From assembly GCA_964510235.1 (NCBI GenBank), contig CAZEBF010000001.1:13001-77000 (forward strand): 64,000 nucleotides of DNA, in the 5' to 3' direction. Position numbers and translations under genes: made by a program. Origin of the DNA: an uncultured Candidatus Saccharibacteria bacterium (GTDB taxonomy: Bacteria; Patescibacteriota; Saccharimonadia; Saccharimonadales; CAYUUR01). The notes beneath the pieces were generated by a model, which did not search any database, was not told the DNA's origin, and was given only the letters and a program-made list of their open reading frames with translations. This document shows positions 26,933 through 42,874 of the stretch, in pieces. The stretch's first letter is position 1, and each line of letters starts with the position of its first letter.

Positions 26933-27862
26933 ATGTTGTTTACCAAAGCCAAAACTGATTTTCTGGAGTACCTAGAGATAGAGCAGAACCGCTCACAGAA
27001 AACTATCGCTAATTATGATCACTACCTAACAAGACTAAGTGACTACGCTGGCGACGACATCAAAGTGGCCGATATCGACCCCGAGATGATTCGCAAATGG
27101 CGACTATGGCTGAACCGACTTGGCACCAATACTAGCGACGAGCTACAAAAGACAACTCAGAATTATCACCTAATCGCACTAAGGAGCTTTCTGAAGTTTT
27201 GCTCCAAACGCGACATCCCTGCTCTGTCAGCTGACAAGATTGAGCTAGCGCGCACCGTTCGCAAACAAGTCACATTTCTAAACGCTGACGAAGTACTGAG
27301 ACTCTTCGAACAAACTGACACATCTACACTTGGCGGCCTTCGTGACCGAGCAATTTTGGAATTGCTCTTCTCTAGCGGCTTGCGTGTGTCTGAGCTGGTT
27401 GGCCTCAATCGTGATCATGTAAACCTCAAACGCCGAGAGTTCATGGTGCGCGGTAAAGGACAGAAAGACCGCCCAATATTCATAAGCCCACTGGCGGCTG
27501 AATGGATCCAAAAATACCTTGATGCTCGCCAGGATACTGCACAAGCATTGTTTATCCGCCACGGTAAAGGTGGCGCCAGGACTGTCGACACCAGTGGAAA
27601 CTACAATCGACTGACCGCCCGTAGCATCCAGCGCATGGTGGCCCGCTATGCCCTGCTGGCAGGCATCACTAAGCATGTTTCACCCCATACGTTACGCCAC
27701 AGTTTTGCGACTGATCTGCTGATGAACGGGGCTGATTTACGCTCTGTGCAGGCCTTGTTAGGCCACAGCAACATCGCCACTACCCAGATCTACACCCACG
27801 TAACCGACCCACATCTCAAATCGGTTCACGAAAAGTTTCACCGCCACGGCGACGACGCCTAA
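26933..27862 (+). CDS. Tyrosine site-specific recombinase, XerC/XerD family.
   Basis: It has an N-terminal core-binding domain. The C-terminal catalytic region is HTLRHSFATDLLMNGADLRSVQALLGHSNIATTQIYTHV, which supplies the R..HxxR..Y residues. Confidence 0.8.
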   Translation: MLFTKAKTDFLEYLEIEQNRSQKTIANYDHYLTRLSDYAGDDIKVADIDPEMIRKWRLWLNRLGTNTSDELQKTTQNYHLIALRSFLKFCSKRDIPALSADKIELARTVRKQVTFLNADEVLRLFEQTDTSTLGGLRDRAILELLFSSGLRVSELVGLNRDHVNLKRREFMVRGKGQKDRPIFISPLAAEWIQKYLDARQDTAQALFIRHGKGGARTVDTSGNYNRLTARSIQRMVARYALLAGITKHVSPHTLRHSFATDLLMNGADLRSVQALLGHSNIATTQIYTHVTDPHLKSVHEKFHRHGDDA

Positions 27863-28950
27863 GGGTTACAGGCTGCTTGTTGAGCAGCGCTTTGAGCTGG
27901 CGTAAGAGTGATGTTTGGCTCGTTAGCGCTATTAACATCATTAACCGACTCTCCGGGTAGTGTATAGAATCTTTTACATAGTGTCGTAAAAGTTTGTAGC
28001 GCGTACTCCGGGAAGACTGCACCAGCGTTGGTGAGCGGCACGTTTACTTGAACACGACGCACCACGTCAGCCGCCTTACCAGTCACATCTATCTTAGCCT
28101 GACCATTCTTAAGCTCCTGAACCTGTCCGTCATCAGCGAACGACTGCACCAGTATGCTGGATGGGCTGTAGATGGCTTTAAGCCTAATGTAATACGAGCT
28201 TCGAGTGAGTCCTGTTAAACGCACCTTACAGAAAGGCTCACGAGAGACATTGCAATTACCATTCACAAACAAGCCTTGTTGTCCGGGAGTTGGTGTTACA
28301 GCCGGAACTGGTTGCGAGGTAGTTCCATTACCGGCATTTGGATACAAGAACGCTTGGTACGTATCGGTAATTTGCTGATTACGCGAAGGGACGTCAGGTA
28401 TCAGCATCAGACGTACAACGCCTGTCGTATCGCCCCATCGATTCTCTGGAGTAAGTAAGTGCGTCGGCGACCAAGTAGGGTCTGCAAAACGAGCATCTGT
28501 GGGACGTTGATCTGGCACCTGCCAGTTAATTTCAAGATTACGTACTGGTTGTCCATTAGCAGTCTCGACTTTCATTACCCATGAGGCACCATCAGGGTCA
28601 ATTCTTGTCTGTAATCCGGTCGGCGTGACATCCATAAGTACGCAGGTAAACGATACATTATTGCCTAAGCTTGCTTGATCCATAATTCCAACTTGTGGGG
28701 TATCTTCACAACTGTCAACATCGCTCAGTGTTGCTAGATTGCCATCTATGTAATCACGCGCCACGTTCACACCACTCTCCGCTGCATAAAACGCTTGGGT
28801 GCTCAGCTGTTGATCCAGAGCTTGCCTTTGCTCACGACGCATCAGTGTGGCAAAACCAACGATGATAAGCGTCACGATTCCGAGAATGATAAGCGTAACA
28901 GTGATGGCTGCCAGGCCTGACTCATTACGACGTAAAGTTGTCTGAGACAT
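27859..28950 (-). CDS. Type IV pilus minor pilin/assembly protein, PilX-like.
   Basis: The N-terminus has a TM helix plus the QAFYAAESG motif typical of PilX. It is the last gene of the pilus cluster. Confidence 0.55.
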   Translation of the reverse strand: MSQTTLRRNESGLAAITVTLIILGIVTLIIVGFATLMRREQRQALDQQLSTQAFYAAESGVNVARDYIDGNLATLSDVDSCEDTPQVGIMDQASLGNNVSFTCVLMDVTPTGLQTRIDPDGASWVMKVETANGQPVRNLEINWQVPDQRPTDARFADPTWSPTHLLTPENRWGDTTGVVRLMLIPDVPSRNQQITDTYQAFLYPNAGNGTTSQPVPAVTPTPGQQGLFVNGNCNVSREPFCKVRLTGLTRSSYYIRLKAIYSPSSILVQSFADDGQVQELKNGQAKIDVTGKAADVVRRVQVNVPLTNAGAVFPEYALQTFTTLCKRFYTLPGESVNDVNSANEPNITLTPAQSAAQQAACNP

Positions 28951-29696
28951 TAGTTTGTTCTCCTATAGACTGTTGTTTGTAATTCTGAGGTAGCGCACCA
29001 TTGAGCACCCAAACCAACGCCTGTACAGCGAGCGGTCAAACTGTCACCTGAGCCGCTAAACTCAATCAACTCGTCATCCTGGCCGTACACTACACCAACC
29101 GCAAAACTAGCTAAAGCGTTACTGTCTTGGGGTACTCGTAACCGGTACAAACGCATACCCTCACCTAGCATCTCTCGCCCATTCGAACCCTGCACACCAC
29201 TGGGCAAATCTTCGCGTGGCTCACAAAGTGGACCAGCTTCGTTCTCATCACGCCACATGGCATTTTTGACATAGTTCTCACTGTTGCTACCAGGCTGATA
29301 AAAATTAACGTCTGGGTTCACTTGACCATTAATGATGTAGCTATAACGAACTTTACCGATACAAAAGGCATTAACCTGCACAGGCCCCTGTGCCCCTGGT
29401 ACCGTCCGGGCAGCCCCAACCGATACTTTTTCGGAGGTAAACTGCAGAGTACGACCAATATCATCAGTGATTGTTCTGGTGGTTTCTTGGGTACGAGAAC
29501 TAACGACTCCCTTGTAGTACAGGCGTCCAATCTGCACTAGCATGCTGGCAGCCAGTAATAGTAAAACTGAGAAAACCACAGTAGATATCATCAACTCTAG
29601 GACGGTAAATCCCGACTGGTTTTTGTGCATACTGCTCATTCGTAGCTCCTGTACACCATCTGTAATTGCTCTTTGCCGCCACCAATGCGATCCCAC
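28950..29696 (-). CDS. Type IV minor pilin, PilW-like.
   Basis: The prepilin-like N-terminus GFTVLELMISTVVFSVLLLLAA sits behind a longer leader. Confidence 0.5.
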   Translation of the reverse strand: MGSHWWRQRAITDGVQELRMSSMHKNQSGFTVLELMISTVVFSVLLLLAASMLVQIGRLYYKGVVSSRTQETTRTITDDIGRTLQFTSEKVSVGAARTVPGAQGPVQVNAFCIGKVRYSYIINGQVNPDVNFYQPGSNSENYVKNAMWRDENEAGPLCEPREDLPSGVQGSNGREMLGEGMRLYRLRVPQDSNALASFAVGVVYGQDDELIEFSGSGDSLTARCTGVGLGAQWCATSELQTTVYRRTN

Positions 29697-30085
29697 CGAA
29701 CGTTAATCGTATACGTTGAGCCCTGTTTGACGATGAAGACATTATGAAAGCCGGAGTTTCTGCCGGTACATGCTGCCGGGTACCCAGCAAAAGTGTCAGC
29801 AATATACGAAGCCGGTGGCACGCTAGCAGACCAAGTTACAGCTGCATTAGTGCCAGCCAGACAAAAAGGACTTCCCGCGGTTACGCCAGTAACACCGGCT
29901 TTGATAGTTTCAACTTGGCTCTCGGCTAGCTTGGTGGCTTCGGCCCGCTCTTGCGCCTGCCGACTGTTACGAAGGGCCGCATTCACAATACTATAGGCAC
30001 CACCGATCACCATGCTCAGAACGGCCAGACTAATCAAGACTTCCACGATTGTATCGCCCCTGTTGTTGGATTGTATGCGCATCAT
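29636..30085 (-). CDS. Type IV minor pilin, PilV-like.
   Basis: The N-terminus RGDTIVEVLISLAVLSMVIGG is a class III signal-like segment. Confidence 0.5.
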   Translation of the reverse strand: MMRIQSNNRGDTIVEVLISLAVLSMVIGGAYSIVNAALRNSRQAQERAEATKLAESQVETIKAGVTGVTAGSPFCLAGTNAAVTWSASVPPASYIADTFAGYPAACTGRNSGFHNVFIVKQGSTYTINVRWDRIGGGKEQLQMVYRSYE

Positions 30086-30909
30086 GGATTACACCCCAAT
30101 GGTACTGAATCAACTATCAGCCGTGTGTTGATACCAGATGCTTGCTCAGTGATCTCAAGGGCAGCCTGGCGTGCGTTCGCGTTTGTGTCATTACGGAAAC
30201 AAACCGTCGCAGAAGAGATTCTGTTGCTCTCTCTGATAGCCCCAATAGCCGTGTCAAAGTTGGCAATCGTCTGACCAACAGGGCCAGTTACTCCGTATAA
30301 ACCTGCCGTTTGTGAACCAGCTATTGGATCACCACCGCTGCCAAATGAGCCCAGACTTGTTATAAATGCTATCCCACTGAGAGAGTTATTGGCTTGGTCG
30401 AATACTCGCTTCACCCCTAGCCCATAGCCAAAGGTAAATGGCGTTACATACGGAGAGTTATTAGGAGCGGCGACTGGCTTGGCATCATCCAGACTGTCAA
30501 CATCTGCTCCACCTGCAGTACGATTGCCAGCAATTGTCACAGTACGTGCACCGGTACAATTATTACTACAGCCGGCTTCACTGGGCCCAAACTGAATAGC
30601 TTTGCCCAAGAAAATGCAGTCTTCGTTGGTTCCCTGTTCTTGAGCAGCACCAGCCGCTCTAATCTCTGGTGGCTGGTTGGCAACTGCACTACATCGCCAT
30701 GCGGTTGTTTCTGGAAAAAAGCCACTCGTAACGTCATTGGCAACATCAGTGATACGTGAGTCGGCGTCCCTGGTACCTTGCGTAAATCGGGTACGTTCTT
30801 GCTGGCCATAAAAAGCCGTCACCGCAATAACGAACATGGCGCCGGTCACCGCCAGCACAATCATCGACTCAATAATGGTAAATCCCCCAGCCTGGGCACG
30901 GCGTTTCAT
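30082..30909 (-). CDS. Type IV minor pilin, FimT/PilE-like.
   Basis: The N-terminus is GGFTIIESMIVLAVTGAMFVIAVTAF. Confidence 0.5.
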   Translation of the reverse strand: MKRRAQAGGFTIIESMIVLAVTGAMFVIAVTAFYGQQERTRFTQGTRDADSRITDVANDVTSGFFPETTAWRCSAVANQPPEIRAAGAAQEQGTNEDCIFLGKAIQFGPSEAGCSNNCTGARTVTIAGNRTAGGADVDSLDDAKPVAAPNNSPYVTPFTFGYGLGVKRVFDQANNSLSGIAFITSLGSFGSGGDPIAGSQTAGLYGVTGPVGQTIANFDTAIGAIRESNRISSATVCFRNDTNANARQAALEITEQASGINTRLIVDSVPLGCNP

Positions 30910-30968
30910 ACCCTCAAGTATAGCATAAGCGTTATTGCAGTCGACGCATTTTTACAGATATACACACA

Positions 30969-31799
30969 TTACAAACCAACCAGCGTATTGTACTGATTGA
31001 CGATACGTTCGCCGTACAACGTAACCACAAATGCGGCAGCTATCAGGAAAGGACCAAATGGCAGTTTACTCGTACGTGAAGCCTTGCCCGCTATCATCAA
31101 CGGTAAAGCGACCAGTGTTCCGATAAAAGACGCCAGGAATAGCAGTAGTATCGCGTTCATTGGCCCGCCCACGATGAGCCCGAGGGCTGCACCGAGCTTA
31201 ACGTCACCACCACCTATCCAGCGGCCATCTGATATCTGGAACAACACATAGAAGAGACCGCCACCGATGGCGACGCCCCAAGCAGCAGAGACCAGCGGAT
31301 CAGCATTTCCTGACACAAGAATACTAGCAGCTACATAGAGACCAGCCAATACAGCCAGAGGCGTTACCATTCGGTTGGGCAACAGCATCCACTTGAGATC
31401 ATACACAGCCAGTGCCATCAGACTAACCACAATGCAGAGCCAGAGGCCAAATAACAGCCATACACCGCCTGATACTGGTTCAGGCCACGCCTTGTAGGAA
31501 ATAACGAACAAAACAGCTGTGGCGAGCTCTACAAGCGGATACTGCGCACCAATACGCTTATGACAGTACCTGCACGCCCCTTTCAGCGACAACCAGCTCA
31601 GTACCGGCACTAGATCTTTAGCAGCCAAACCATGCTTGCAGTGCGGACACATAGAACGACCATGTAGCAAAGAGTATTGGTCTGGCTTCTTGTTTGATCG
31701 CTTAGACTTACTGGTGCCCTGCTTATAGATGCGCCACACATAGGCGTTCACAAAACTACCAAAGCACAGGCCGAGAATAAGCAAACTAAGAATAATCAT
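30969..31799 (-). CDS. pilD: Prepilin peptidase (A24 family).
   Basis: It has the Cys pairs CPHC...CRYC in the cytoplasmic loop and multiple TM helices. Confidence 0.8.
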   Translation of the reverse strand: MIILSLLILGLCFGSFVNAYVWRIYKQGTSKSKRSNKKPDQYSLLHGRSMCPHCKHGLAAKDLVPVLSWLSLKGACRYCHKRIGAQYPLVELATAVLFVISYKAWPEPVSGGVWLLFGLWLCIVVSLMALAVYDLKWMLLPNRMVTPLAVLAGLYVAASILVSGNADPLVSAAWGVAIGGGLFYVLFQISDGRWIGGGDVKLGAALGLIVGGPMNAILLLFLASFIGTLVALPLMIAGKASRTSKLPFGPFLIAAAFVVTLYGERIVNQYNTLVGL

Positions 31800-31812
31800 T
31801 TACCCTATCATA

Positions 31813-31842
31813 ACAAAAAACAGCCCGTTGCCGAGCTGTTTT
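31813..31842 (-). terminator. Intrinsic terminator downstream of pilA copy 1.
   Basis: On the minus strand, AACAGCTCGGCAACGGGCTGTT is followed by TTTTTTGTT. Confidence 0.6.
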
Positions 31843-31860
31843 ATTGAATGCTAGGCTATC

Positions 31861-32352
31861 TTAGCCTTCTTGACAGACTTTGTCGCTAGTACCACCAGTT
31901 TCAACTGTGTACATAGCAGCAAATGCTCGTGAAGTAGCGTTGGTTGAAGTTGCATCGTCTCCGTTAGCAGCACACTTTGCACCACGGACTACCACAACTG
32001 TTGACTCAGTAGTGGCGTTGGTGTTAGTTGTTGCTCCGGCTACAAAAGTGACCTGACCAGAATAAATACCGAGCTTGGCATTTGAGAGTGCTGCCGCCTC
32101 TTCATTAGCTGCAGTTACCCCAGTTGGCAACGTAGGCTGACCAGGCAAGCGACCATTATTGTTGTTTGACCATTCCGAGACTGCACCGAGTACGCTCGCT
32201 ACATCATTTTTTCGTTGTGTGTTACGGCTGTTACGCTGCAAGGCTGGTACAGCCAAGAAGACGATTAGCATGATCAGTCCGGCGATTACTAGGACGATCA
32301 AGACTTCGATGATGGTGAAGCCTTTTTCTTGTTGTTTTACTTTTGATAACAT
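31861..32352 (-). CDS. pilA: Type IV major pilin, PilA copy 1.
   Basis: The prepilin leader MLSKVKQQEKG|FTIIEVLIVLVIAGLIMLIVFLAVPAL has class III signal features. The C-terminal region is variable. Confidence 0.8.
   Translation of the reverse strand: MLSKVKQQEKGFTIIEVLIVLVIAGLIMLIVFLAVPALQRNSRNTQRKNDVASVLGAVSEWSNNNNGRLPGQPTLPTGVTAANEEAAALSNAKLGIYSGQVTFVAGATTNTNATTESTVVVVRGAKCAANGDDATSTNATSRAFAAMYTVETGGTSDKVCQEG
32213..32322. repeat. 110-nt perfect direct repeat, copy A. It encodes the conserved N-terminal helix inside pilA copy 1.
   Basis: It is identical base for base to 32818-32927. Confidence 0.9.
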
Positions 32353-32435
32353 TGCTTTATTTCCCCCTTATATGTGCTTAAAGCATAGTGCTTATGTATG
32401 AATGGTAACTGCTCGTTTAGCGAAATGCAACTTTT

Positions 32436-32957
32436 TTATGAGGAGATGCACGTTGCTGTAGCGTTACCACCTGTTTCGACTGCATAGACCACAACTATGC
32501 TGGTGCCGCTCTGAACATCATTGTTAGTGCACTTAGCCTGTCCGAGCATAATTATTAGGCTCTGGTTTGTAGTAATTGTTGTACCAAGAGTACTAGTCGC
32601 TAGATTTCCGGTTTGTCCCGTTGTATTAGCAAGTATATTTAATGCTGAACCACCATATATGCTCAGGCTACCAGCATTAGTTAGAATTGCGGTACGTGTC
32701 GTATCTGGCGCGCCGGAGCATGCAGCCAGTACTGGAAAGCAAGTTGCAGGCCAGGCATTTGCATTATTCGTTCGCCACTCGGAAGCCCCACTTACAATGC
32801 GGCTAGCTTCTGTTCTTCGTTGTGTGTTACGGCTGTTACGCTGCAAGGCTGGTACAGCCAAGAAGACGATTAGCATGATCAGTCCGGCGATTACTAGGAC
32901 GATCAAGACTTCGATGATGGTGAAGCCCTCGGTCTTTTTCTTTAGTTGTGTTTTCAT
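32436..32957 (-). CDS. pilA: Type IV major pilin, PilA copy 2 (paralogue).
   Basis: MKTQLKKKTEG|FTIIEVLIVLVIAG... has the same N-terminal helix as copy 1. The C-terminal domain is divergent. Confidence 0.8.
   Translation of the reverse strand: MKTQLKKKTEGFTIIEVLIVLVIAGLIMLIVFLAVPALQRNSRNTQRRTEASRIVSGASEWRTNNANAWPATCFPVLAACSGAPDTTRTAILTNAGSLSIYGGSALNILANTTGQTGNLATSTLGTTITTNQSLIIMLGQAKCTNNDVQSGTSIVVVYAVETGGNATATCISS
32818..32927. repeat. 110-nt perfect direct repeat, copy B, inside pilA copy 2.
   Basis: It is identical to 32213-32322. The two encode GFTIIEVLIVLVIAGLIMLIVFLAVPALQRNSRNTQR in both genes. Confidence 0.9.
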
Positions 32958-32988
32958 TTAGTGCCCATCCTATTTTTAAACATTAGCT

Positions 32989-34215
32989 TTATACTACAGT
33001 AACCTCGTTGACCAGTCCATAGATTGGCATCAATACTGCCGCCACAATAGTTATGGCCACAATACCGAGCAGAATCATCATTATTGGTTCGATGACCGTA
33101 GAAATAGTCTTAATCTCGTTATCGACTTCTTTCTCATAATAATCTGCTGTTTTACCAAGCATTTGCTCAATTGCACCAGATTGCTCACCGATACGGAGCA
33201 TGTTAGGCACAAGATCCAAGAAGTTATCATTATTTTCTAGTGCTGACGACAACGACTTACCAGCCTTTACCTTCTCGGTAGCTTTAATTAGTGCCGCCTC
33301 AATGTGGACATTATTAATTGATCTACCCGTAATCTGCAATGTTTGCACCAGTGGTACACCACTGGCAACCAGCGTAGTACCCGTTCGGGCAAATCGCGCC
33401 ATATACATCTTCATGAACAGTGGTCCAATTGGCCAAGCCACCATTTTTATTCGGTCGATGACGCGCTTTCCGCCAAAACTACGAGCCCAGCGACTGCCAA
33501 AGAAGATTGCCACAACGAGTATTATGACCACGACATACCAGTACGTCCGTACAAAGCTCGAGAATGAAAGCAAGGCTCGCGTCAGTAACGGCAACGAAGC
33601 ACCGCCCCCGATGCTCGTGTACAATTCTTCTACCTGCGGTAACACCTGGAGCACCATAAAACCTACTACCAAAATCATCACAAACAGCACGATACCCGGA
33701 TATACCATAGCGCCACGGACCTTACTAATAATCTCGGCGTCTTTTTCTTGCTGGTTAGCTAAGCGTTCGAGTGATTTATCGAGCGTACCGGATGCCTCGC
33801 CTGCTGCCACCAGGTTGACGAACACGTTATCAAAAACCATCGGATGGCTGCCGAGTGCAGCAGAGAATGATTGACCAGCCTCAACATCAGCGATTACCTG
33901 GTTAATCACAAGCTTCATATTTTTGTTCTTAGTCTGCTGAGCAATGCTACGCAGCGACTGCACCAAGGGCAGACCAGCGTTAATCAGCGTGGAAAGCTGA
34001 CGCGAGAACAGGATTTTGTCTTTGGTCTTGATGCGCTTTGTAAATCGTCCCAAACCGCCCGAACCAGGACCGCCTGATTTTACCTCGATCTCCAGCACCG
34101 ACAAACCCTGTTGCTGTACCAGTTTAGTAGCAGCAGACTCAGTTTCGGCCTGAACTTCAGCCTTTACTTTTTGGCCTGAGGCTGGGTCGCGTGCGGTGTA
34201 AGAAAAAGTTAACAT
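32989..34215 (-). CDS. pilC: Type IV pilus platform protein PilC (GspF family).
   Basis: It has two T2SS-F domains and three TM segments. Confidence 0.85.
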   Translation of the reverse strand: MLTFSYTARDPASGQKVKAEVQAETESAATKLVQQQGLSVLEIEVKSGGPGSGGLGRFTKRIKTKDKILFSRQLSTLINAGLPLVQSLRSIAQQTKNKNMKLVINQVIADVEAGQSFSAALGSHPMVFDNVFVNLVAAGEASGTLDKSLERLANQQEKDAEIISKVRGAMVYPGIVLFVMILVVGFMVLQVLPQVEELYTSIGGGASLPLLTRALLSFSSFVRTYWYVVVIILVVAIFFGSRWARSFGGKRVIDRIKMVAWPIGPLFMKMYMARFARTGTTLVASGVPLVQTLQITGRSINNVHIEAALIKATEKVKAGKSLSSALENNDNFLDLVPNMLRIGEQSGAIEQMLGKTADYYEKEVDNEIKTISTVIEPIMMILLGIVAITIVAAVLMPIYGLVNEVTVV

Positions 34216-34225
34216 TTATATGTTC

Positions 34226-35302
34226 CTAACCCCTCATCAACCGATCAAGTTCATCGAGATCAATGGCGTAGTTACGTGCCTCATCGTAGGTAATGGTACC
34301 GTTGTGAATCAGCTGAACCAGTGTTTTATCCATTGATTGCATACCGAACTCGGCGCCAGTCTGAATGACTGCCTCGAGCTGGTGACTCTTACCTTCACGG
34401 ATGATATTGCGAACGGCCGGTGTTGCCACCAAAATTTCTGCTGATGCAATTCGTCCACCACCGATAGACGGGATTAGACGCTGTGACACAATGGCCTGCA
34501 AGATGTTCGCCAACTGCGCACGAATTTGTGGCTGTTGGTGTGGTGGAAAAACATCAATCATACGGTCAATACTCTGTGAGGCACTGTTGGTGTGCAGAGT
34601 TGCAAACACCAAGTGACCTGTTTCAGCTATGGTAATAGCCGCAGCAATAGTCTCTAGGTCGCGCATCTCACCAATCAGCACAACGTCAGGGTCTTGGCGC
34701 AAGCTAGAACGCAAAGCGGCTGAGAATGAATAGGTGTCGTAGTGAACTTCGCGCTGAACGATAACTGATTTATTACTCTTGTGAGTAAATTCAATTGGAT
34801 CTTCGATGGTAACAATGTGCTGAGCCCGTTCGGCGTTAATCTTGTGGATCATAGCTGCCAGCGTGGTTGACTTACCAGAACCGGTTGGACCAGTTACCAA
34901 CACCAAACCGCGCGGATAATCAGCAAACTTGTTAACGATTGGTGGAAGACCAAGCTGTTCGATGGTCAAAATCTCGTTCGGGATTAAACGTAAAGCCGCT
35001 GCTAAGTTGCCCCGCTCATGGAAGGCGTTGACACGGAAGCGCCCCAGGTCACCAAAGGCAAAACTGAAGTCAAACTCTTTGTCTTTGAGGAGAATTTGCT
35101 TTTGGTCTTCGTCTAAGATTGCAAAAATAAGTGCTTCAACCGCTTCTTCGGTCAATGCCTCGGTGCCACTGACTGGCAACAGTGAACCATCAACACGCAA
35201 CATCGGTGGCAAGCCCACCTGCAAGTGAAGGTCTGAGCCCTTCTTCTTGATGACTTCTTCTAGTAAGATTTCAATTTTTGGTTGTCCCTGCATACTTCCC
35301 AC
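34226..35302 (-). CDS. pilT: Type IV pilus retraction ATPase PilT.
   Basis: It has the Walker A motif GPTGSGKST, the Asp box, the His box, and the PilT-length (358 aa) layout. Confidence 0.85.
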   Translation of the reverse strand: MGSMQGQPKIEILLEEVIKKKGSDLHLQVGLPPMLRVDGSLLPVSGTEALTEEAVEALIFAILDEDQKQILLKDKEFDFSFAFGDLGRFRVNAFHERGNLAAALRLIPNEILTIEQLGLPPIVNKFADYPRGLVLVTGPTGSGKSTTLAAMIHKINAERAQHIVTIEDPIEFTHKSNKSVIVQREVHYDTYSFSAALRSSLRQDPDVVLIGEMRDLETIAAAITIAETGHLVFATLHTNSASQSIDRMIDVFPPHQQPQIRAQLANILQAIVSQRLIPSIGGGRIASAEILVATPAVRNIIREGKSHQLEAVIQTGAEFGMQSMDKTLVQLIHNGTITYDEARNYAIDLDELDRLMRG

Positions 35303-35305
35303 CTT

Positions 35306-37102
35306 CTATGTATTGTTATCTGAGGCCGCTACGCGGTCAACTTCTGCTAAGCTGGTTTCTCCATCGAGTACTTTGAGATAGCCATCTTCACGCATTGTAA
35401 CCATTCCTTCTGATTGGGCGACCTTTTGAATCTCGGAACTCGGTGCGCGATTGAGGATAAGCTGCTGGATTGCCGGCGATACCTCGAATACTTCGTAGAG
35501 CCCCATTCGTCCCTTATAACCGCCAGGGCTACCGGGACCTTCTTTGCCCTTAGTCAAAGTATAAGCGCTTTGACCCCTCAGAGGCAAGGTCTTATAGCCG
35601 AAATCTTTGGCATACTTGTCCATCTCTTCTTTCTTTTCGGGCAAGAATTTGCCAATTGTAGCATGAATGGCCTCTGTTTCTGGGCCTGTCGACTGATACT
35701 CTTCTTGCTCGGCACCAATTCGACGCACCAAGCGCTGTCCAATCACCGTATGAACGGTGCTGGCGATCAAAAACGGTTCAATACCCATGTCTAATAAACG
35801 TGGCAAGATACCCGCCGCCGAGTTGGTGTGCAGCGTACTGAAGACTAAGTGCCCTGTCAGAGCGGCCTGAACGGCCAATGTCGCCGTCTCTTTATCACGA
35901 ATCTCACCAACCATGATCACGTCAGGATCTTGACGCAAAATTGAGCGCAAACCGCCTGCAAAAGTTAAACCGACGTCAGCATTCACCTGTATTTGGTTAA
36001 TTCCAGGCATCTTATACTCAACTGGGTCTTCCAGCGTGACGATATTGATTGAGTCATTCATAATCTCTTGAATCAAGGCATACATAGATGTCGACTTACC
36101 AGAACCGGTTGGTCCAGAGGTCAGAATCATGCCGTTTGGCCGAGCGGCACCTTTTCTAAGCATACGGAGCGCCCTACCTTTGTAACCCATATCCTCAAGC
36201 TTGAGGCTCGTCCCCGTCTTGTCTAGCAAACGAATAACCACCTGCTCACCCCAAACCACTGGCGATATGGCAATACGTAGGTCAATCTGGTGCTTGTTGA
36301 CCGTCATAGTGAACTGACCATCTTGCGGAATACGGTGTTCATCGATCTTGAGGTTTGCCAAGATTTTGATGCGCGACACAAGTGGCGGTTCAGTGCTTTT
36401 GGGCAATTTCATAATCTCACGCAAAATACCGTCCACTCGACAGCGAATCTTCAGTTCTTTCTCGAGTGGCTCGATATGAATATCACTGGCGCGGTTAGTG
36501 GCAGCATAGTCCAAAATTGCCGTTAGTGCCTTACTAATTGGCGAGTCTTGGACGACTGTTTCGATATTCTGGGCGTCTTTTTTATTCGACTTCTTATCGG
36601 TCTCTTCATCTTCTTCAAGGTGTGTTCCGAGTGCGCCAGCCACCTCTTTATCAATGTTTGAGTTGTCGTATTGGCCTAATACTTGGCGAATACCCTCTTC
36701 ACTGGCTGTGTACACCTTGAGCGGGCGACCAACTTTGTTAGACAAAAAGTCAACAGCCTGCACGTTATCGGCGTCCAGCATGGCGACGACCAGACGATGC
36801 TGCATCTCGCCGAGTGGCACTGCCATGTATTGTTCGGCTGTTTCTTTTGGCAGCAAACTCAGTATCTCAGGATCAATTCGGGCTGTAGCCAGATTCACAT
36901 AAGGCACGTTATTTATCTTGGCGACCATTTTGGTCAGATCTTCATTGCTAATCAGCCCATCGCTAACAAGCTTAGAGAACAATGGTGTTTGCTCTTGTTC
37001 GGCCTTAGTCTTGATATCTGCAAAATCCTTAGCCGAGACGGTACCATCCTTAACTAAGGCTTCTTCGACAAGCTTCTGTGTGGCGGCGGAGAGGACACTC
37101 AC
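35306..37102 (-). CDS. pilB: Type IV pilus assembly ATPase PilB (GspE family).
   Basis: It has an N-terminal GSPII-like domain and the Walker A motif SGPTGSGKST. The 598-aa length is typical. Confidence 0.85.
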   Translation of the reverse strand: MSVLSAATQKLVEEALVKDGTVSAKDFADIKTKAEQEQTPLFSKLVSDGLISNEDLTKMVAKINNVPYVNLATARIDPEILSLLPKETAEQYMAVPLGEMQHRLVVAMLDADNVQAVDFLSNKVGRPLKVYTASEEGIRQVLGQYDNSNIDKEVAGALGTHLEEDEETDKKSNKKDAQNIETVVQDSPISKALTAILDYAATNRASDIHIEPLEKELKIRCRVDGILREIMKLPKSTEPPLVSRIKILANLKIDEHRIPQDGQFTMTVNKHQIDLRIAISPVVWGEQVVIRLLDKTGTSLKLEDMGYKGRALRMLRKGAARPNGMILTSGPTGSGKSTSMYALIQEIMNDSINIVTLEDPVEYKMPGINQIQVNADVGLTFAGGLRSILRQDPDVIMVGEIRDKETATLAVQAALTGHLVFSTLHTNSAAGILPRLLDMGIEPFLIASTVHTVIGQRLVRRIGAEQEEYQSTGPETEAIHATIGKFLPEKKEEMDKYAKDFGYKTLPLRGQSAYTLTKGKEGPGSPGGYKGRMGLYEVFEVSPAIQQLILNRAPSSEIQKVAQSEGMVTMREDGYLKVLDGETSLAEVDRVAASDNNT

Positions 37103-37113
37103 CGTCTTACCCC

Positions 37114-37362
37114 CTAGTTATCTGTCTCAAATGGTGTCGCGTTACCATTGCCACCAATTTCGATGGTCTGCGTTGGGTTAACGGACTTCTCGTTAAAGAA
37201 GCGTGTATCAGGCTGCACAAAGTCAGAGACAATCGGCTCTACTACTTCTACTTGAGCTATTCGCTCACTCGAAGGCACTAGCAAGTAACGCGATGCAAAG
37301 AATGACATAAAGCCACTGACGAATACAATTACCAAGATTAATGCTAAATCTTTCTGTTTCAT
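37114..37362 (-). CDS. Small single-pass membrane protein of the pilus operon (PilP-like position).
   Basis: 82 aa with an N-terminal TM helix, lying between pilO and pilB. Confidence 0.4.
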   Translation of the reverse strand: MKQKDLALILVIVFVSGFMSFFASRYLLVPSSERIAQVEVVEPIVSDFVQPDTRFFNEKSVNPTQTIEIGGNGNATPFETDN

Positions 37363-37363
37363 G

Positions 37364-38119
37364 CTATTTCACCTCCTTAGTGGTGATATTGAGCGTTTTT
37401 TCTGGGAGATAGTAGGTCTTGGCCTCGATCTGCACCTGTAGTTTGGCGTCATCACCGCTGAATGTGATACGGCTAACTGGGAACGGACGAATTGATCGCT
37501 CCATTGATCCAATCAGCCCCTGAATACTCGTGTAAGTGCCAGAGGCACCAATCTGGAATGGAATTTCTACTGGATCCTTTTGACCCACGGCAGTAAGTTG
37601 GTTGACTTCATCATCGGTACCGCTAATGTTTTCGATGGTGTAATTGCCGCTCGTAAGTACTTTCTCCAGACTCGATGCGAGTGCTGGGAAGTCGTATTTG
37701 CTTGGCAAGGCGTCGAGCACAATCTTGGCGTTATCACCATCTCTGTCACCCTTGCCTGCCGGATCACCACCAATCACGTTCTCGGCCGTGCCCGTAAAAG
37801 CTTGGTAGGACGTAACGAGGGTGTCAACTGCTGCTACGTTGGCTTCGAGTTGGTTACGAGCGACCTCTTTTTCTGTGATAACACGCGCCTGGAAACTACG
37901 CTGATCCCACAAAGCCTTGGCCGCTACCAGTGAGAACATAGTTATGAACGAGGCTACCGCCACAACAACAACCATTGTCGTGTTGGCTTTGGTTATCTGG
38001 GTTCGCTTGCCTGAAGGCCGCGTTGATTGTTGTGCTTCTGCCATGTTAGTTGCCTCCTTGTTCGAACAGCGCAGCTGGCTTTTCGGTCTGTGAACGAGTT
38101 GTAACAGTCTTTGGTACAA
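37364..38119 (-). CDS. pilO: PilO-like pilus biogenesis protein.
   Basis: It has a TM helix plus a coiled-coil and a periplasmic domain. The likely true start is MAEAQQ at about 38044, which abuts the pilN stop. Confidence 0.55.
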   Translation of the reverse strand: MYQRLLQLVHRPKSQLRCSNKEATNMAEAQQSTRPSGKRTQITKANTTMVVVVAVASFITMFSLVAAKALWDQRSFQARVITEKEVARNQLEANVAAVDTLVTSYQAFTGTAENVIGGDPAGKGDRDGDNAKIVLDALPSKYDFPALASSLEKVLTSGNYTIENISGTDDEVNQLTAVGQKDPVEIPFQIGASGTYTSIQGLIGSMERSIRPFPVSRITFSGDDAKLQVQIEAKTYYLPEKTLNITTKEVK

Positions 38120-38711
38120 TCAGCTCAACTTTTTGTGCATTGTTGAAGATTGTTGGATCAAACTTGCCAGATATCTGATAAGTTGTGCTTTTTTCGTCAC
38201 GTGAGAAACTCGTCAATACTACCTCTGGAAATGCCTTCTTAGCTTCGGCGCCTTCAACAGTATATGTTGTAAACTTGAGCGTATCGACAAATGTATTAAC
38301 GTCTTGAATGTCGGGAGCGCTACCTGTAAAAATAAGCGTGCCGTTTGCAACATCTAGGTCAAGCTGCGAGATGCTAACGTTGTTCGGAACAACCTGCTTA
38401 AGATAACCAAATAATCGAGTCGTTTCAGCTTTTTGGCCATGCAAACCAGGCAGTGCGTTAAGCTGATTCTGAATTGTTAGAACTTTATTGAGATCAGGTG
38501 TGCTCTGTAACGTTTGGCTGTTTGCGGCGATATCTTCAGTCAAGTTACTAATGTGCTGCTTCTGTAGTATGTTGACGACTACAAATAGAATAATGAGCAG
38601 ACCTAGGCTGATAGTCGCTACACCACTAGCAATCAATGTAACCATACGCTTAGTACGCTTAGTCTTGATGTAATCAAGCTTGATGTCTGGGAGCAGGTTG
38701 AGTTGAATCAT
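38046..38711 (-). CDS. pilN: PilN-like pilus biogenesis protein.
   Basis: It has the N-terminal IQLNLLP motif and a single TM helix. Confidence 0.65.
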   Translation of the reverse strand: MIQLNLLPDIKLDYIKTKRTKRMVTLIASGVATISLGLLIILFVVVNILQKQHISNLTEDIAANSQTLQSTPDLNKVLTIQNQLNALPGLHGQKAETTRLFGYLKQVVPNNVSISQLDLDVANGTLIFTGSAPDIQDVNTFVDTLKFTTYTVEGAEAKKAFPEVVLTSFSRDEKSTTYQISGKFDPTIFNNAQKVELIVPKTVTTRSQTEKPAALFEQGGN

Positions 38712-39820
38712 TATTCGCTCCTCTCCGCCAAGCCTACTGCTACGCCAAAGCTATTAGATACAGCCAGTAATTCATTCTGTTGAGACTGAGCAAATGATAC
38801 GTTCCGCCAAGAGTTACCAATTTCTACACTCAAACCAAACTTGTTAGCAATGTGCAGCGGGAACTCTGGCAGTGATGAAGCGCCACCAGTAACGACAACG
38901 CGCTCGAGCTTGGCATCAACATATCGGGTCTGGAAGAACTTAATAGATTTTTCTATCTCAGCAGTGAGGATTTCTACCGTTCCGATGATAGCGTTATAAA
39001 TCTGCCCCTCAAGTTTGTCTTTACTGAGACCAAACTTAAACACAAACTGCTGAGCTTGCTTCTCGTCGATACTGAGATTTTGCATTGCTGCACGGATGAT
39101 TGCTTCTGAGCCAGTTGGGATTGAACGAGTCAAACGTGGCGCTCCGCCAGTGGTAATAACAAGGTCGGTGTTCTTAGAACCGATGTCGAGCACCATCTGA
39201 GCACCAGCAGAATCAGGTGCAGTTAGTGCGCGAGTTATTGCCAAGTTATCTGGTTCAAATGCAATGACATTGAGGCCAATTGACTCAAGCATGTCGAGTC
39301 GGTTTTCGATAAAGTCGTTTGGTACGCTAGAAAGCAGAATCTCGACCTTTGTCTTATCCTTCGGTGAATCACCCAGTAGCGCCCAGTCAATCTTAGAATC
39401 AGACAGTGGCGTCGGAATAAGTGAATCGGCCTGGAAACGAATGGTTTTAGCTAACTCATCGGGGCTGAGACGATCAATGTCTACAACTGTTGTGAACACT
39501 TTGGCTGATGGAATACCAACGGCAACGTTTTTGGTCGAAACTCGGGCTTCGCCAATCAACTCTTTGACAACCTGGACTAACTTTTGCTGATCAACCTTAG
39601 AATCACTCATGGCAATCTTGCTATCAACGGGTACGTAGGCGTATTTGACCAGTGTCTTGACTGGACCGCTACCGCTCAACTGCACTAAACGAATAGCAGA
39701 GGTGCCGATATCGAGGCCAAAGAAGTCAGACACGCCCGAAATAATACTCACGATTGTCCCCTTATTGCTGTCTGTGTTTGCTGTATATTCATGTGTTTCT
39801 CTGATTCCCGCTTGGCCCAC
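38711..39820 (-). CDS. pilM: PilM, actin-like pilus assembly ATPase.
   Basis: It has the phosphate-1 motif GLDIGTSAIRLV and an FtsA/actin-like fold pattern. Confidence 0.75.
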   Translation of the reverse strand: MGQAGIRETHEYTANTDSNKGTIVSIISGVSDFFGLDIGTSAIRLVQLSGSGPVKTLVKYAYVPVDSKIAMSDSKVDQQKLVQVVKELIGEARVSTKNVAVGIPSAKVFTTVVDIDRLSPDELAKTIRFQADSLIPTPLSDSKIDWALLGDSPKDKTKVEILLSSVPNDFIENRLDMLESIGLNVIAFEPDNLAITRALTAPDSAGAQMVLDIGSKNTDLVITTGGAPRLTRSIPTGSEAIIRAAMQNLSIDEKQAQQFVFKFGLSKDKLEGQIYNAIIGTVEILTAEIEKSIKFFQTRYVDAKLERVVVTGGASSLPEFPLHIANKFGLSVEIGNSWRNVSFAQSQQNELLAVSNSFGVAVGLAERSE

Positions 39821-39882
39821 CCTAAGGCAAAACGGAGATCGCTTACTCCAAATTATAGCATAAGCGCAATGGCGAGCAACCC

Positions 39883-42387
39883 CTAAAGTATCGGTGGCAG
39901 CGAGGTGATAAAGTCAATCTGCGACTTTTGTTGAGGTGTTCCGCCAATCGGTGGCATTATGGTGTAGAGCTTCATGTCAAAGATAAGGTCTTCAGCAGCA
40001 GTAGAAAAGATAGCAGAGCCATTCTCAACACTCGTTCTTCTAGTTCCAGCGGTTCGTTGCAGTTTAACCTGATCGGCAATTACTGCACCGTTAATAACCA
40101 ACTTACCGGTTCCATTAACGCCACTGCCGCCACAGTTATCATAGAGCTGCCCTGCGTTGAAAAGCGTACCGGTGGAACTCGTACAGGTAAACAGTGTCTT
40201 GGTTGTGATGAGTGCAGCGTAAACACGTGGCGTCGTATTGCTGATCTTAATATTACCAGAGGTAATGATATAGAGTGTTGCGTCGTCTTCCGCATCAATA
40301 ATGCCATTGATAACAACTTCAACGTTCTCGCCGGTAAGGAAAATAGCTGTTGGTTCAGTCACAGTACCACCCGTAATGGTAACCACTCCGCTGCGGTTAT
40401 TATGAATGACTCCACCTGTAAATGTGCTGGCTGAAACAGAGGCAGCTTGCGTTGCAGTCAGTCCGGTCGGCAGTCGCGCCAGCCAATCATCAGCACACTG
40501 CCTATTACCACTGACTCCGCCGTAGTCAACAACTTTGCGATTATCTACTGGGTCGGTACCATTAATTCCATTAATCTCTGCGTTGGCAAATGTCAGCCCA
40601 TGTGGTGGCGTTGGCTGAGCTCCACCCCTCGGGCTACGTCTACCCGCACTAAAGAAGTTACGGATCTCGCCAAGGGCCGATACACCATATTCACCCGATG
40701 AGCCAGTGAAGCGGTTCACAAGATCATCGCCACCGTAACCAATAATTGTAGCGTCAGCTTGCCTCACTGTGCAGGCAGTCTGTCCGTTATTAAATCCACC
40801 GCCTACATGTACATCATTAGTCCATACCTTGAAAAACGGCTTTGCCGCCACAACAACCGTTTTATCGCAATCATCGCGAACGGCTATGTTATCACGTAGC
40901 CGCAGTAAGGCGTCATAATTATACTCACCTGCGGCATTGGCGGTATAAGTCCCCATCGAATATGACCCCTCCACTTCCGTACCTCCCGTGTCGGCTATAT
41001 TGGTTGGGCCAACATTCACACGAGTATTGTCGATCCCTGAACTTGTGAATTGACCCCTGCCCTCTAGTGTTGTCGCATCACCACTATAGCCATAATTCAT
41101 CGTAACTCCAAACGACTGTCCTGGTTCTGGATTTCTTGGGTTGAACGTAATCTCGCAGCTAATCTGCGGGATCACATCCACCCCTCTTGGGTCCCACTCC
41201 ATTACTAGCCAAGCCTCGGCAAATGGTACTTTGTTCGGGTTGGGCGAACGACGCGCAATACTATCAACATCGTTACCAAACTGGGGGTCATTAATAAGCG
41301 GGTTACCGTTATAGGTTCCAGAACCATCCTGGTTCTTTATGCCAGCAACAATTAGGTCAAAGTCATCAATTGTGCCATCTGATCTGTAGGTGGCCCCTGG
41401 AATTGCACTTCCCAACGGACATGGCTCACTAACACAGCGCACGCCGGTTGACGTAGTGGAGGTCTCTGCATTCGAACCATTTAACTGACGTGCCCCCATT
41501 GCACCTAGGGCATATGCACCCCAGTTGGTGTCATAGTTACCGCCCGAAGGTCCTGAAGCCTGGCTGCCTGCCTTAAATCTAAAATCCCAATAACAACCTC
41601 CGTCATTGGCATTATCAAAGTTTCCCGGCCACTGAATGTTCGTGCTGCCCGTTAGATCGCCGATACTAATCCCTGCGCACCAGACATTTTGACCATTGAC
41701 CTTATATCCACCCGCGTCAGCAATAAACCCATAAGCACCACCGGCAGTTGACTGCTTAATGCCCGCTGCGCGCTTCACGTCAAGATCAAAGTCGTCCCAA
41801 TCACTCCCTGCTGACTGGCGTATTGAATCTGCCTGTCCTGAAGAGTAAGCCTCTTGAGCACTGGTCACACCAAGGTAGACATTAACGGGCCTCTGCTTGG
41901 TTGCTCCCGATACAGGATTTCTGAACAATTGGTTATCTAAGAATACTCTCTCGCCATTCCAAGCATTGTTATATGTCTCCTTGCAATTAGGCGTACTTGA
42001 ATCCGCGTAACCGCCCGCTTCAAAAACATGCGCACGACCGTCGGCGTTTCCAACTACCTTGAACCTATAAGCATACCGGGGCCTGCCGTTTGGTCCATCT
42101 GGCATACGATGCCGCTCTGTAACAATAATCTCACAATAAGGGTTCGAAGGATTTGCGTCACTTTGTGTCCCTGTATCACTTGGCACATCAGTCCAGTTTC
42201 GATACTGCTGATTAGGGTTCGTACCGATACTGCCGTTAAAATGAGCCAGGGCATCGAGGAATTCACTGCCCGCAACCTCAACATGAGCATTGGCTTTTTG
42301 AGGAAAGACCATTGCAAGTCCGCATAAAACAGAGGATGCCAATAAAAGCATGGTTAGATTTCTTAGGTATGATCTTGTCTGTCTCAT
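39883..42387 (-). CDS. Large secreted protein of 834 aa at the head of the pilus operon, possibly pilus-associated.
   Basis: It has the signal peptide MRQTRSYLRNLTMLLLASSVLCGLAMVFPQKANA. The body is Gly/Asn/Asp-rich and beta-rich. It sits immediately upstream of pilM. Confidence 0.45.
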   Translation of the reverse strand: MRQTRSYLRNLTMLLLASSVLCGLAMVFPQKANAHVEVAGSEFLDALAHFNGSIGTNPNQQYRNWTDVPSDTGTQSDANPSNPYCEIIVTERHRMPDGPNGRPRYAYRFKVVGNADGRAHVFEAGGYADSSTPNCKETYNNAWNGERVFLDNQLFRNPVSGATKQRPVNVYLGVTSAQEAYSSGQADSIRQSAGSDWDDFDLDVKRAAGIKQSTAGGAYGFIADAGGYKVNGQNVWCAGISIGDLTGSTNIQWPGNFDNANDGGCYWDFRFKAGSQASGPSGGNYDTNWGAYALGAMGARQLNGSNAETSTTSTGVRCVSEPCPLGSAIPGATYRSDGTIDDFDLIVAGIKNQDGSGTYNGNPLINDPQFGNDVDSIARRSPNPNKVPFAEAWLVMEWDPRGVDVIPQISCEITFNPRNPEPGQSFGVTMNYGYSGDATTLEGRGQFTSSGIDNTRVNVGPTNIADTGGTEVEGSYSMGTYTANAAGEYNYDALLRLRDNIAVRDDCDKTVVVAAKPFFKVWTNDVHVGGGFNNGQTACTVRQADATIIGYGGDDLVNRFTGSSGEYGVSALGEIRNFFSAGRRSPRGGAQPTPPHGLTFANAEINGINGTDPVDNRKVVDYGGVSGNRQCADDWLARLPTGLTATQAASVSASTFTGGVIHNNRSGVVTITGGTVTEPTAIFLTGENVEVVINGIIDAEDDATLYIITSGNIKISNTTPRVYAALITTKTLFTCTSSTGTLFNAGQLYDNCGGSGVNGTGKLVINGAVIADQVKLQRTAGTRRTSVENGSAIFSTAAEDLIFDMKLYTIMPPIGGTPQQKSQIDFITSLPPIL

Positions 42388-42391
42388 GACA

Positions 42392-42874
42392 CTAAAGGTT
42401 TAGACCGCCTGTCCTCAGCTGCACCTTTTGCGCTGATGAAATCTCGGATGAACGCGTCTTTAGTACGTCACCAATGAGCGATTTTGCCTTGGTTGCGCCC
42501 AAATCACCTGCTTTGATATACAGCACTACGACATCATTTATATCGCCTTTTGTTAGCTCTTCTTTCGTTAGGCTGAAGAGAAAATCACGGTCTATTGCAA
42601 CGTTACTGTCTTTGTCGGTTGTGTATTGTAAGGTTTTCCCGAGATAAGTCGCTGTTGTTGGCTCCACACTAGCGACACTAGGGCCTACTGAGTTAATTAT
42701 TGCCTGATTAATCTCTCTATTCTTAAGCCATATGCCTGTCATTGTACCTGCTGTAAACACCAAACAAATAAAGCATAGAATCAGTAAAGAATATATGACC
42801 AATCTCTTTCTGCTTGACGATACCCCAGTGACAACATGTGCTTTTCTATTGTCGGCTTTTGTTTGCATACACAA
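42392..42874 (-). CDS. Hypothetical membrane-anchored protein.
   Basis: 160 aa with an N-terminal TM helix (IYSLLILCFICLVFTAGTMTGIW). Confidence 0.4.
   Translation of the reverse strand: MCMQTKADNRKAHVVTGVSSSRKRLVIYSLLILCFICLVFTAGTMTGIWLKNREINQAIINSVGPSVASVEPTTATYLGKTLQYTTDKDSNVAIDRDFLFSLTKEELTKGDINDVVVLYIKAGDLGATKAKSLIGDVLKTRSSEISSAQKVQLRTGGLNL

Follow-up and report, generated by a model that had tools for sequence, protein, structure and literature searches.

A modular secreted protein family encoded beside pilM at a secretin-less type IV pilus locus of Saccharibacteria

How the ultrasmall, epibiotic bacteria of the Candidate Phyla Radiation (CPR) find and hold their hosts is an open question, in which the type IV pilus (T4P) is the best-supported player; no receptor-binding component has been identified so far for their essential T4P-1 pilus. 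The locus described here lies in a 64,000-nt stretch of contig CAZEBF010000001.1 (assembly GCA_964510235.1) from an uncultured Saccharibacterium, called the window in the following and numbered from its first letter, and combines a T4P cluster with the gene of a large secreted protein of 834 amino acids (aa) directly upstream of pilM. An earlier note on this DNA took this gene for the head of a pilus operon and suggested that its product is a lineage-specific tip adhesin, and that a small membrane protein of 82 aa within the cluster replaces PilP. The secretin-less pilus cluster is ordinary, since it is already known from other Saccharibacteria. New is the family formed by the 834-aa protein and a small membrane partner, thousands strong and tied to pilM, with swappable N-terminal modules and a near-invariant terminal peptide, which constitutes a testable candidate for host recognition in environmental Saccharibacteria. 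We favour, at a probability of about 0.4, the reading that the 834-aa protein is a pilus-associated accessory adhesin, PilY1-like by analogy and not by homology.

Architecture and family of the 834-aa protein

Five parts can be distinguished in the 834-aa protein (the arrow marks the predicted cleavage site; the model confidence is the predicted local distance difference test, pLDDT, of AlphaFold2, AF2):

42286-42387, minus strand: Sec signal peptide, aa 1-34, cleavage ANA↓HVEV
41221-42285, minus strand: N-terminal module, aa 35-389, rich in Cys and Trp, lineage-restricted
40849-41166, minus strand: Ig-like seven-strand beta-sandwich, aa 408-513, AF2 pLDDT ~90
39922-40848, minus strand: conserved beta-rich C-terminal core, aa 514-822, ~310 aa, the family-defining module
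39886-39921, minus strand: C-terminal tail QIDFITSLPPIL-COOH, final 12 residues, the protein ending ..IDFITSLPPIL

As the earlier note had held for this and the 82-aa protein, no curated family accommodates it: there was no Pfam match at E<=0.1 and no NCBIfam match. Full-length relatives are rare (8 among 5.8 billion proteins), and the N-terminal module is found in ~10 cluster representatives and in 2 of 185,579 GTDB species genomes; the GTDB scan used N-module patterns, and its two matches gauge the rarity of that module, not of the whole family. The family, which is defined by the C-terminal ~440 aa, was instead sized by an exhaustive profile search of cluster representatives; 2,904 of these matched at E<1e-3, of which 1,926 also passed E<1e-10. 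Among the 150 matches listed, nearly all cover just positions ~390-827 and reach their own C-termini. The description as lineage-specific thus holds for the N-terminal module and fails for the C-terminal one (~2,900 clusters) as well as for the 82-aa protein (at least 1,938 clusters), both of which are widespread in Saccharimonadia. The big protein and its partner constitute a large family not found in Pfam, NCBIfam or the literature searched. It was probably missed because no Pfam or NCBIfam model exists and because Southlakia epibionticum carries no such gene beside pilM.

Conservation within the protein peaks in the tail. In a logo of 152 sequences it reads Y (122), D (118), any residue, I (128), T (101), S (119), L (148), P (147), P (152), I or V (141) and L, F or Y (151), followed by the stop; this near-invariant Y-D-x-I-T-S-L-P-P-[IV]-[LFY] has its proline at position -3 in all 152 sequences, and the same type of tail ends 39 of 39 family open reading frames (ORFs) in the metagenome loci described below. 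The window protein matches the hidden Markov model (HMM) of the C-terminal module with 7.5e-121 and is the sole ORF of this family in the window. Readings of the tail as a sortase signal, a PEP-CTERM signal or an outer-membrane beta-signal were rejected, given that no transmembrane (TM) segment follows the motif, that it contains a Pro-Pro pair and that there is no outer membrane. An LPXTG motif with hydrophobic segment and basic tail is not present either; S-L-P-P-[IV]-[LFY] is itself the C-terminus.

The other end of the protein behaves differently. Nearly all full-length members carry signal peptides, and N-terminal similarity is shared by just 5.6% of member pairs. Comparison with a relative from the window's own clade (P0003) gives 60% identity for the N-terminal module vs 46% for the C-terminal part; the better conservation of the N-terminal module within the clade suggests that variation arises by replacement of whole modules and not by rapid point change. 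Pfam matches occurred in just 8 of 103 members scanned (Ig-like, discoidin, SdrD_B, DUF7402 and SurA_N). The C-terminal module gave no Pfam match in any of the 103, and no enzyme domains were found among them.

An AF2 model of the C-terminal 445 aa, based on a 72-sequence alignment, reached a pLDDT of 86 and a predicted template modelling score (pTM) of 0.84. It consists of the Ig-like sandwich, a non-repetitive beta-rich core of ~310 aa and a disordered stretch formed by the last 12 residues (pLDDT <50). The full-length model, built from 7 homologues, had a pLDDT of 50 and its N-terminal module was unusable. Foldseek searches of the C-terminal model against PDB and BFVD matched the Ig-like part alone, to generic Ig/CARDB-like sandwiches, with whole-query TM-scores <0.2, and a profile search against PDB sequences returned only marginal Ig-like matches to a sialidase (E 0.005). 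A PilY1-type fold was not recovered by any route: PF05567 had no match, the predicted secondary structure showed no seven-bladed repeat, and Foldseek gave no PDB match at E<=1e-3. The PilY1-like domain that the earlier note had envisaged is hence not what the prediction for the C-terminal 445 aa shows, which is an Ig-like sandwich with a beta-rich core and no PilY1 propeller.

These properties of tail and module bear on one alternative, in which the protein is a pilus-dependent cargo. TcpF and CofJ are small released colonisation factors of type IVb pilus systems, whose N-terminal peptides bind the tip minor pilin (TcpB/CofB). The likeness lies in the short flexible terminal peptide of a secreted protein as a possible pilus-tip recognition element; the difference is that this peptide is N-terminal there, whereas here it is C-terminal and follows a conserved module of ~310 aa. 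By this comparison, the 834-aa protein could be released or presented by a pilus machine resembling a type II secretion system, with the terminal peptide as its recognition signal. The short, invariant and disordered peptide, the diversity of the N-terminal modules and the possibility that a retractile pilus works as a piston fit such a cargo. However, ~310 conserved residues beyond the tail exceed the needs of a secretion signal, a monoderm has no outer membrane that would call for type II-like export after Sec, and the members scanned lack enzyme domains. We consider a cargo improbable.

Two minor observations concern the window protein and its close relatives. Cleavage of the signal peptide is predicted to leave a histidine as the first residue (AxA↓H; aa 35, 42283-42285, minus strand), which is kept in 9 of 10 proteins sharing the N-terminal module, and H49 and H120 are invariant in the proteins that share it. 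An N-terminal histidine loosely recalls N-terminal-histidine copper sites; Pfam gives no support to this likeness. In P0002, the closest relative (83% identical, on a 533-kb NCBI contig), the protein stops after 579 aa; its end bears no relation to the family tail and the conserved core is missing, possibly through a frameshift, decay into a pseudogene or faulty assembly.

Linkage to pilM, partner gene and transcription units

Starting from the protein itself, 10 genomic contexts were obtained, which span 24-51% identity; in all 10, the family gene lies immediately upstream of pilM. Circularity was avoided by fetching 80 metagenome loci via the 82-aa gene, which sits between pilO and pilB, and scanning them with the C-module HMM. 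Usable were 40 loci that contained pilM and enough upstream DNA; the sample consists of the 80 best matches and leans towards relatives of the window organism. The loci divide as follows:

Family gene directly upstream of pilM: 37 of 40 loci
Family gene 5 kb upstream, with two inserted genes between: 1 of 40 loci (L039)
No family gene: 2 of 40 loci (L062 and L064)

Conservation of the gene beside pilM, on which the earlier note had made its interpretation depend, is therefore borne out in both samples.

A second gene travels with the first:

42392-42868, minus strand: 158-aa single-pass membrane protein (the partner) with a basic N-terminus, one TM helix and a helical ectodomain

Four nt separate its stop codon from the start of the 834-aa gene, and the product has no Pfam or NCBIfam match. 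In 20 of the 23 related loci with enough sequence, the gene of a single-pass TM protein of 100-350 aa directly precedes the big gene, mostly with a 4-nt ATGA overlap. These partners vary in sequence; several match TPR models with scores over the Pfam cut-off, and some show a weak likeness to SurA_N or rotamase domains. One protein of 1,198 aa (P0159; 6973-10569 of locus L009), with a TM helix, a SurA_N-like region, a second signal-like segment and no separate partner upstream, seems to have arisen by fusion of a partner with a big protein. In locus L078 (1034-7578), two complete cassettes, each of a small TM gene and a big gene, stand in tandem between ychF and pilM. The two big paralogues are 62.5% identical over ~600 C-terminal residues and unrelated in their first 340-440.

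The following signals were predicted on the pilus strand:

42907-42915, minus strand: extended -10 promoter TGCTATAAT ahead of the 158-aa/834-aa gene pair, as read from the sequence
39852-39865, minus strand: pilM promoter GCTTATGCTATAAT, a TRTGn extended -10 of the form TRTGnTATAAT, followed by a leader of ~100 nt
31817-31842, minus strand: strong intrinsic terminator downstream of the second pilin gene, with an 11-bp stem and a T run
30917-30930, minus strand: promoter GCTTATGCTATACT, 7 nt ahead of the first minor-pilin start, with one mismatch vs the pilM promoter

TRTGn extended -10 elements are typical of Gram-positive promoters. The element ahead of the gene pair is followed by an AGAGGGG ribosome-binding site and the ATG of the 158-aa gene. 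The pilM promoter, the sole exact match to its sequence in the 64 kb, sits in the 131 nt that separate the 834-aa gene from pilM, and ~30 of the 47 corresponding intervals in related loci contain a recognisable form of it. We thus distinguish at least four co-directional predicted units: partner and 834-aa gene, pilM to the second pilin, pilD, and the four minor pilins. The assumption that the 834-aa gene heads the pilus operon was wrong, because the coupled 158-aa gene lies upstream of it and that gene and pilM have separate promoters.

The sequence CTTATGnTATAAT was also considered as a pil-specific regulatory site or operator and rejected; it conforms to the TRTGn extended -10, and less strict matches are found ahead of unrelated genes. 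The pilM leader (39752-39851, minus strand) contains a small hairpin followed by a T run at 39833-39850, and a GGTGGGC motif ~30 nt after the -10 is conserved between the window and four related loci (L001, L003, L004 and L007). In many other loci the -10 ends just 12-14 nt before the pilM start codon, so that pilM transcripts from these would be nearly leaderless.

Possible roles at the pilus

The window cluster and its flanks are syntenic, gene for gene, with SEML1_0100-0120 of Southlakia epibionticum ML1, an agreement with characterised Saccharibacteria that the earlier note had left to be established. There, SEML1_0104-0116 represent the T4P1 locus, most genes of which are essential by transposon sequencing (Tn-seq), and the cells show apparent T4P-mediated motility (Wang 2023, PMC10633639). 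The same locus in Nanosynbacter lyticus, TM7x_00415-00475, is responsible for a thick pilus that is essential and has been linked to twitching (Grossman 2025, PMC12206443). One difference is the gap between ychF and pilM, which is empty in S. epibionticum, whereas in the window it holds a histidine kinase, a DUF1801 protein, a protein with a Lamin Tail Domain (LTD) and the 158-aa and 834-aa genes. An essential pilus beside an empty gap, together with the two loci that lack the family gene (L062 and L064), argues for an accessory role of the 834-aa protein.

The same comparison weighs on the idea that the big protein replaces the secretin or PilP. In this case, its C-terminal module would oligomerise above PilMNO and guide the pilus through the wall or S-layer, with the tail binding PilN, PilO or the 82-aa protein and with a TPR partner resembling the PilF/Tgl pilotin. 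In diderms, pilP follows pilO, the N-terminus of PilP binds PilNO, and PilF/Tgl is a TPR pilotin. The window offers likenesses to this arrangement, as a large beta-rich exported protein and, in several relatives, a TPR partner are encoded beside pilMNO, and a small protein directly follows pilO, where pilP sits in diderms. A gene directly upstream of pilMNO, a membrane-anchored TPR partner that recalls TPR pilotins and an invariant tail suited to a conserved target in the platform would all agree with a substitute. Secretin and PilP homology, in contrast, were not found, and the ectodomain of the 82-aa protein has just ~55 residues. Some lineages do without the big protein at this locus, as seen from its absence beside the essential T4P1 genes of S. 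epibionticum and from L062 and L064, and N-termini that are unrelated between members and differ even between tandem paralogues are unexpected for a structural ring. Because of the absence from an essential-pilus locus and the interchangeable N-termini, a core structural role, including that of a secretin substitute, becomes less likely, and we rate the substitute as poorly probable.

A pilus-independent surface adhesin deserves more weight, even though we regard it as unlikely. Here, C-terminal module and tail would anchor the protein in the wall or S-layer and display the variable N-terminus as an adhesin acting at close range, and the ychF-pilM gap would be no more than a tolerated site for cassettes. 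The promoter of the gene pair is its own, the gap also accommodates unrelated variable genes (histidine kinase, DUF1801, LTD, GDSL lipase and others), and the S. epibionticum pilus is essential with this gap empty. Moreover, several non-pilus adhesins are essential in S. epibionticum (Wang 2023, PMC10633639). On the other side, no known wall-anchoring motif (LPXTG with TM segment, SLH, LysM or a similar Pfam domain) was found, and adjacency to pilM in 47 of 50 contexts, at identities down to ~24%, would be difficult to account for if gene and pilus were not functionally connected. That the place beside pilM has been kept across such deep divergence lowers the odds of a role entirely apart from the pilus.

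According to the reading that we favour, the 834-aa protein would be a Sec-exported, modular accessory protein built from an N-terminal module, an Ig-like spacer, the ~310-aa beta-rich module and the flexible C-terminal peptide. The N-terminal module would be the part that binds a surface or a host. C-terminal module and tail might dock onto a conserved part of the pilus, for which the minor-pilin tip complex is the likeliest candidate, so that extension and retraction of the pilus could present the binding module and pull on it, as with PilY1 in diderms. The co-translated, membrane-anchored TPR or SurA_N-like partner may chaperone or hold the big protein once Sec has exported it. Several observations are in line with this. 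The N-terminal Pfam matches point to binding or stalk types (discoidin, SdrD_B, Ig-like). The tail is conserved and at the same time predicted to be disordered in a confident monomer model, as might be expected of a docking peptide. There also appears to be room at the tip, since the minor pilins form a GspH/I/J/K-like set, their PilX-like member lacks Glu5 and the locus contains no PilY1 gene.

PilY1 reportedly consists of a variable N-terminal part and a conserved C-terminal part that presumably docks on the minor-pilin complex (Treuner-Lange 2020, as cited in PMC12206443). PilY1/PilC (PF05567) and the 834-aa protein have in common that they are large signal-peptide proteins encoded with pilus genes and consist of a variable N-terminal and a conserved C-terminal part. 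They differ in the absence of a PF05567 match and of a seven-bladed repeat from the 834-aa protein, in gene position (upstream of pilM instead of among the minor pilins), and in the invariant C-terminal peptide and the coupled membrane partner. The suggestion of a tip adhesin accordingly survives as plausible by analogy; homology to PilY1 was looked for and not found. Another parallel is provided by the tapirins of Caldicellulosiruptor, adhesins of a novel fold encoded beside a monoderm T4P locus. They resemble the present case as lineage-specific adhesins of novel fold next to a monoderm T4P cluster and differ in gene position; there is also no match in sequence or fold, and the NCBIfam tapirin model touched just the N-terminal helix of a minor pilin.

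Four points count against this reading. First, gene pair and pilM have separate promoters, and co-expression with the pilus genes is not guaranteed. Second, the tail is near-invariant and the minor pilins are variable, which would point to a binding partner better conserved than these, for instance PilN, PilO, the ectodomain of the 82-aa protein or an enzyme. Third, members of the close clade agree more in the N-terminal than in the C-terminal module, with no sign of point-mutational diversifying selection. Fourth, the core has no fold relative in PDB or BFVD. Whatever probability is not covered by the roles discussed falls to something else.

It is a possibility, though a doubtful one, that C-terminal module and tail constitute a so far overlooked docking system, by which exchangeable recognition modules are mounted on the Saccharibacterial T4P. 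If so, a cassette of membrane chaperone and modular protein would be a main genetic determinant of host or surface for environmental Saccharibacteria, and that oral G1 model strains lost or moved it would indicate a change in their host recognition. The pattern of module swaps points to the question of host range, and the C-module HMM and the tail motif provide simple markers for metagenomes.

The pilus cluster, the 82-aa protein and neighbouring genes

Between 27859 and 42387, the minus strand carries 15 consecutive ORFs in the order 834-aa gene, pilM, pilN, pilO, 82-aa gene, pilB, pilT, pilC, two pilins, pilD and four minor pilins. ORFs and Pfam matches confirm the earlier gene list as a contiguous, same-strand T4P cluster. 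Pfam matches are above the gathering score unless marked as below threshold or cut-off:

38711-39751, minus strand: pilM, 346 aa from GTG 39751; PF11104, 1e-39
38046-38711, minus strand: pilN-like gene, 221 aa; PilN and GspL_C matches below threshold, position kept in all loci
37364-38044, minus strand: pilO-like gene, 226 aa; PilO 20.3 bits vs a cut-off of 22
37114-37362, minus strand: 82-aa bitopic membrane protein, MKQKD-TM-..VEPI..DF..PD..FN..S.NPT..I.IG..N..PF
35306-37102, minus strand: pilB extension ATPase; T2SSE 4e-119 and MshEN
34226-35302, minus strand: pilT retraction ATPase, 358 aa, directly after pilB; T2SSE 8e-51
32989-34215, minus strand: pilC platform protein; T2SSF 5e-59, two repeats
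32436-32957, minus strand: pilin 1, 173 aa, leader ..KTEG↓FTIIE; N_methyl match
31861-32352, minus strand: pilin 2, 163 aa, leader ..QEKG↓FTIIE; N_methyl match
30969-31799, minus strand: pilD prepilin peptidase/methylase; A24_N_bact 3e-28 and Peptidase_A24 2e-15
30082-30909, minus strand: minor pilin 1, GspH/FimT-like, 275 aa; N_methyl below cut-off, 16.2 vs 21.2 bits
29636-30085, minus strand: minor pilin 2, PilV/GspI-like, 149 aa; N_methyl match
28950-29639, minus strand: minor pilin 3, GspJ/PilW-like, 229 aa from ATG 29639; ORF listed as 248 aa with N_methyl match
27859-28950, minus strand: minor pilin 4, PilX/GspK-like, without Glu5, 363 aa; PilX_N match

Three gene starts were refined. 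That of pilM was set to GTG 39751, which has an AAGGGG ribosome-binding site upstream and gives 346 aa vs 345-348 aa in relatives, that of pilO to ATG 38044, and that of the third minor pilin to ATG 29639, in ATGA overlap with the preceding gene. The Pfam scores of the PilN (21.3 bits vs a cut-off of 22.8) and PilO candidates are below threshold, and we therefore accept these identities mainly on position, and also on size and TM topology. PilO matches are present in some of the relatives' proteins at the pilO position, and the protein at this position in S. epibionticum has a structure-based annotation as EpsM/PilO-type; the counterpart of the window pilT is annotated as PilT there (Wang 2023, PMC10633639).

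The two pilins are nearly identical over their first ~45 residues and diverge beyond; related loci contain one or two pilin genes, and together this suggests a recent duplication. The class III signal motif G↓FT(I/V)(I/L)E or G↓DTIVE is found in both pilins and in three minor pilins. The four minor-pilin genes (27859-30909) are translationally coupled through ATGA overlaps, and their order and sizes equal those of SEML1_0113-0116. Weak NCBIfam matches to GspH, PilV/GspI and GspK suggest that, in transcription order, they are H-, I-, J- and K-like.

Taken together, the region is the T4P-1 cluster of a Saccharibacterium and encodes a retractile, secretin-less pilus resembling type IVa pili, in line with its earlier description as a complete, co-directional and PilT-containing cluster. 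From pilM to the PilX-like gene, its order agrees with that of the T4P-1 loci of TM7x and S. epibionticum, including the small unnamed gene between pilO and pilB, and YchF on one side as well as XerC, NDK and tRNA-Arg on the other are likewise shared. The flanks in common with S. epibionticum extend to EF-P, a serine hydrolase and TlyA next to YchF, and to a PH-domain protein and a PpiC/SurA-like protein beyond tRNA-Arg. A difference is the presence of two pilin genes where some relatives have one. No Secretin or PilP match was found by Pfam in the 40 window ORFs scanned, among them nearly all of the window's ORFs >200 aa. The absence of PilQ and PilP that the earlier note had reported is hence borne out within the window and fits both a monoderm envelope and the published absence of PilQ across CPR bacteria (Meheust 2019, PMC6744442). 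The secretin-less cluster is thus real but already known, given its description in TM7x and S. epibionticum and the published PilQ finding. Convergent with the end of the cluster lies a gene for a XerC/D-type tyrosine recombinase (26933-27862, plus strand; counterpart SEML1_0117). Its interpretation as the mark of a mobile element was rejected, since this gene occupies the corresponding position on the S. epibionticum chromosome too.

The 82-aa protein has a single TM helix and no Pfam or NCBIfam match. A gene of 81-95 codons occupies the place between pilO and pilB in every locus examined, and its product is well conserved; a profile search found at least 1,938 clusters, the named ones of which are hypothetical proteins of Saccharimonadales or Patescibacteria, and none of which has a Pfam domain. 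A function as pilin was ruled out for lack of the G↓F..E motif. It is the position after pilO that would suggest a PilP substitute; of the traits of PilP (PF04351), neither a lipobox nor a PilP match at E<=0.1 was found, and an ectodomain of ~55 residues is too short for the PilP beta-domain. Probably, the protein is a conserved bitopic component, a subunit of the PilMNO platform attached to PilNO. In S. epibionticum, the gene that occupies this place, SEML1_0107 (75 aa), is essential by Tn-seq (Wang 2023, PMC10633639), and the TM7x gene at this position, TM7x_00430, was left unnamed (Grossman 2025, PMC12206443).

Further surface-related genes were observed nearby. Just upstream of the cassette, a secreted LTD protein of 292 aa (42948-43826, minus strand) has a promoter-like sequence GTTTATGCTAAAGT of its own; among the relatives, only the closest ones (L001 and L002) have an LTD-protein gene at this place. 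An orphan histidine kinase with HisKA and HATPase_c domains (44401-45741, plus strand) lies between ychF and the cassette, and a similar kinase is found near the cassette in the context of another family member (P0009) and possibly in L064. On the far side of the pilus cluster, an ORF of 2,841 aa (11804-20329, minus strand) has Laminin_G_3 as its sole Pfam match. Upstream of it follow the ORFs 20450-21604, 21528-22526 and 22549-23625 (minus strand), among which a weak match to glucodextranase B and a match to a WxL-interacting peptidoglycan-binding domain were detected, and the region 11804-23625 looks like a giant surface-protein cluster.

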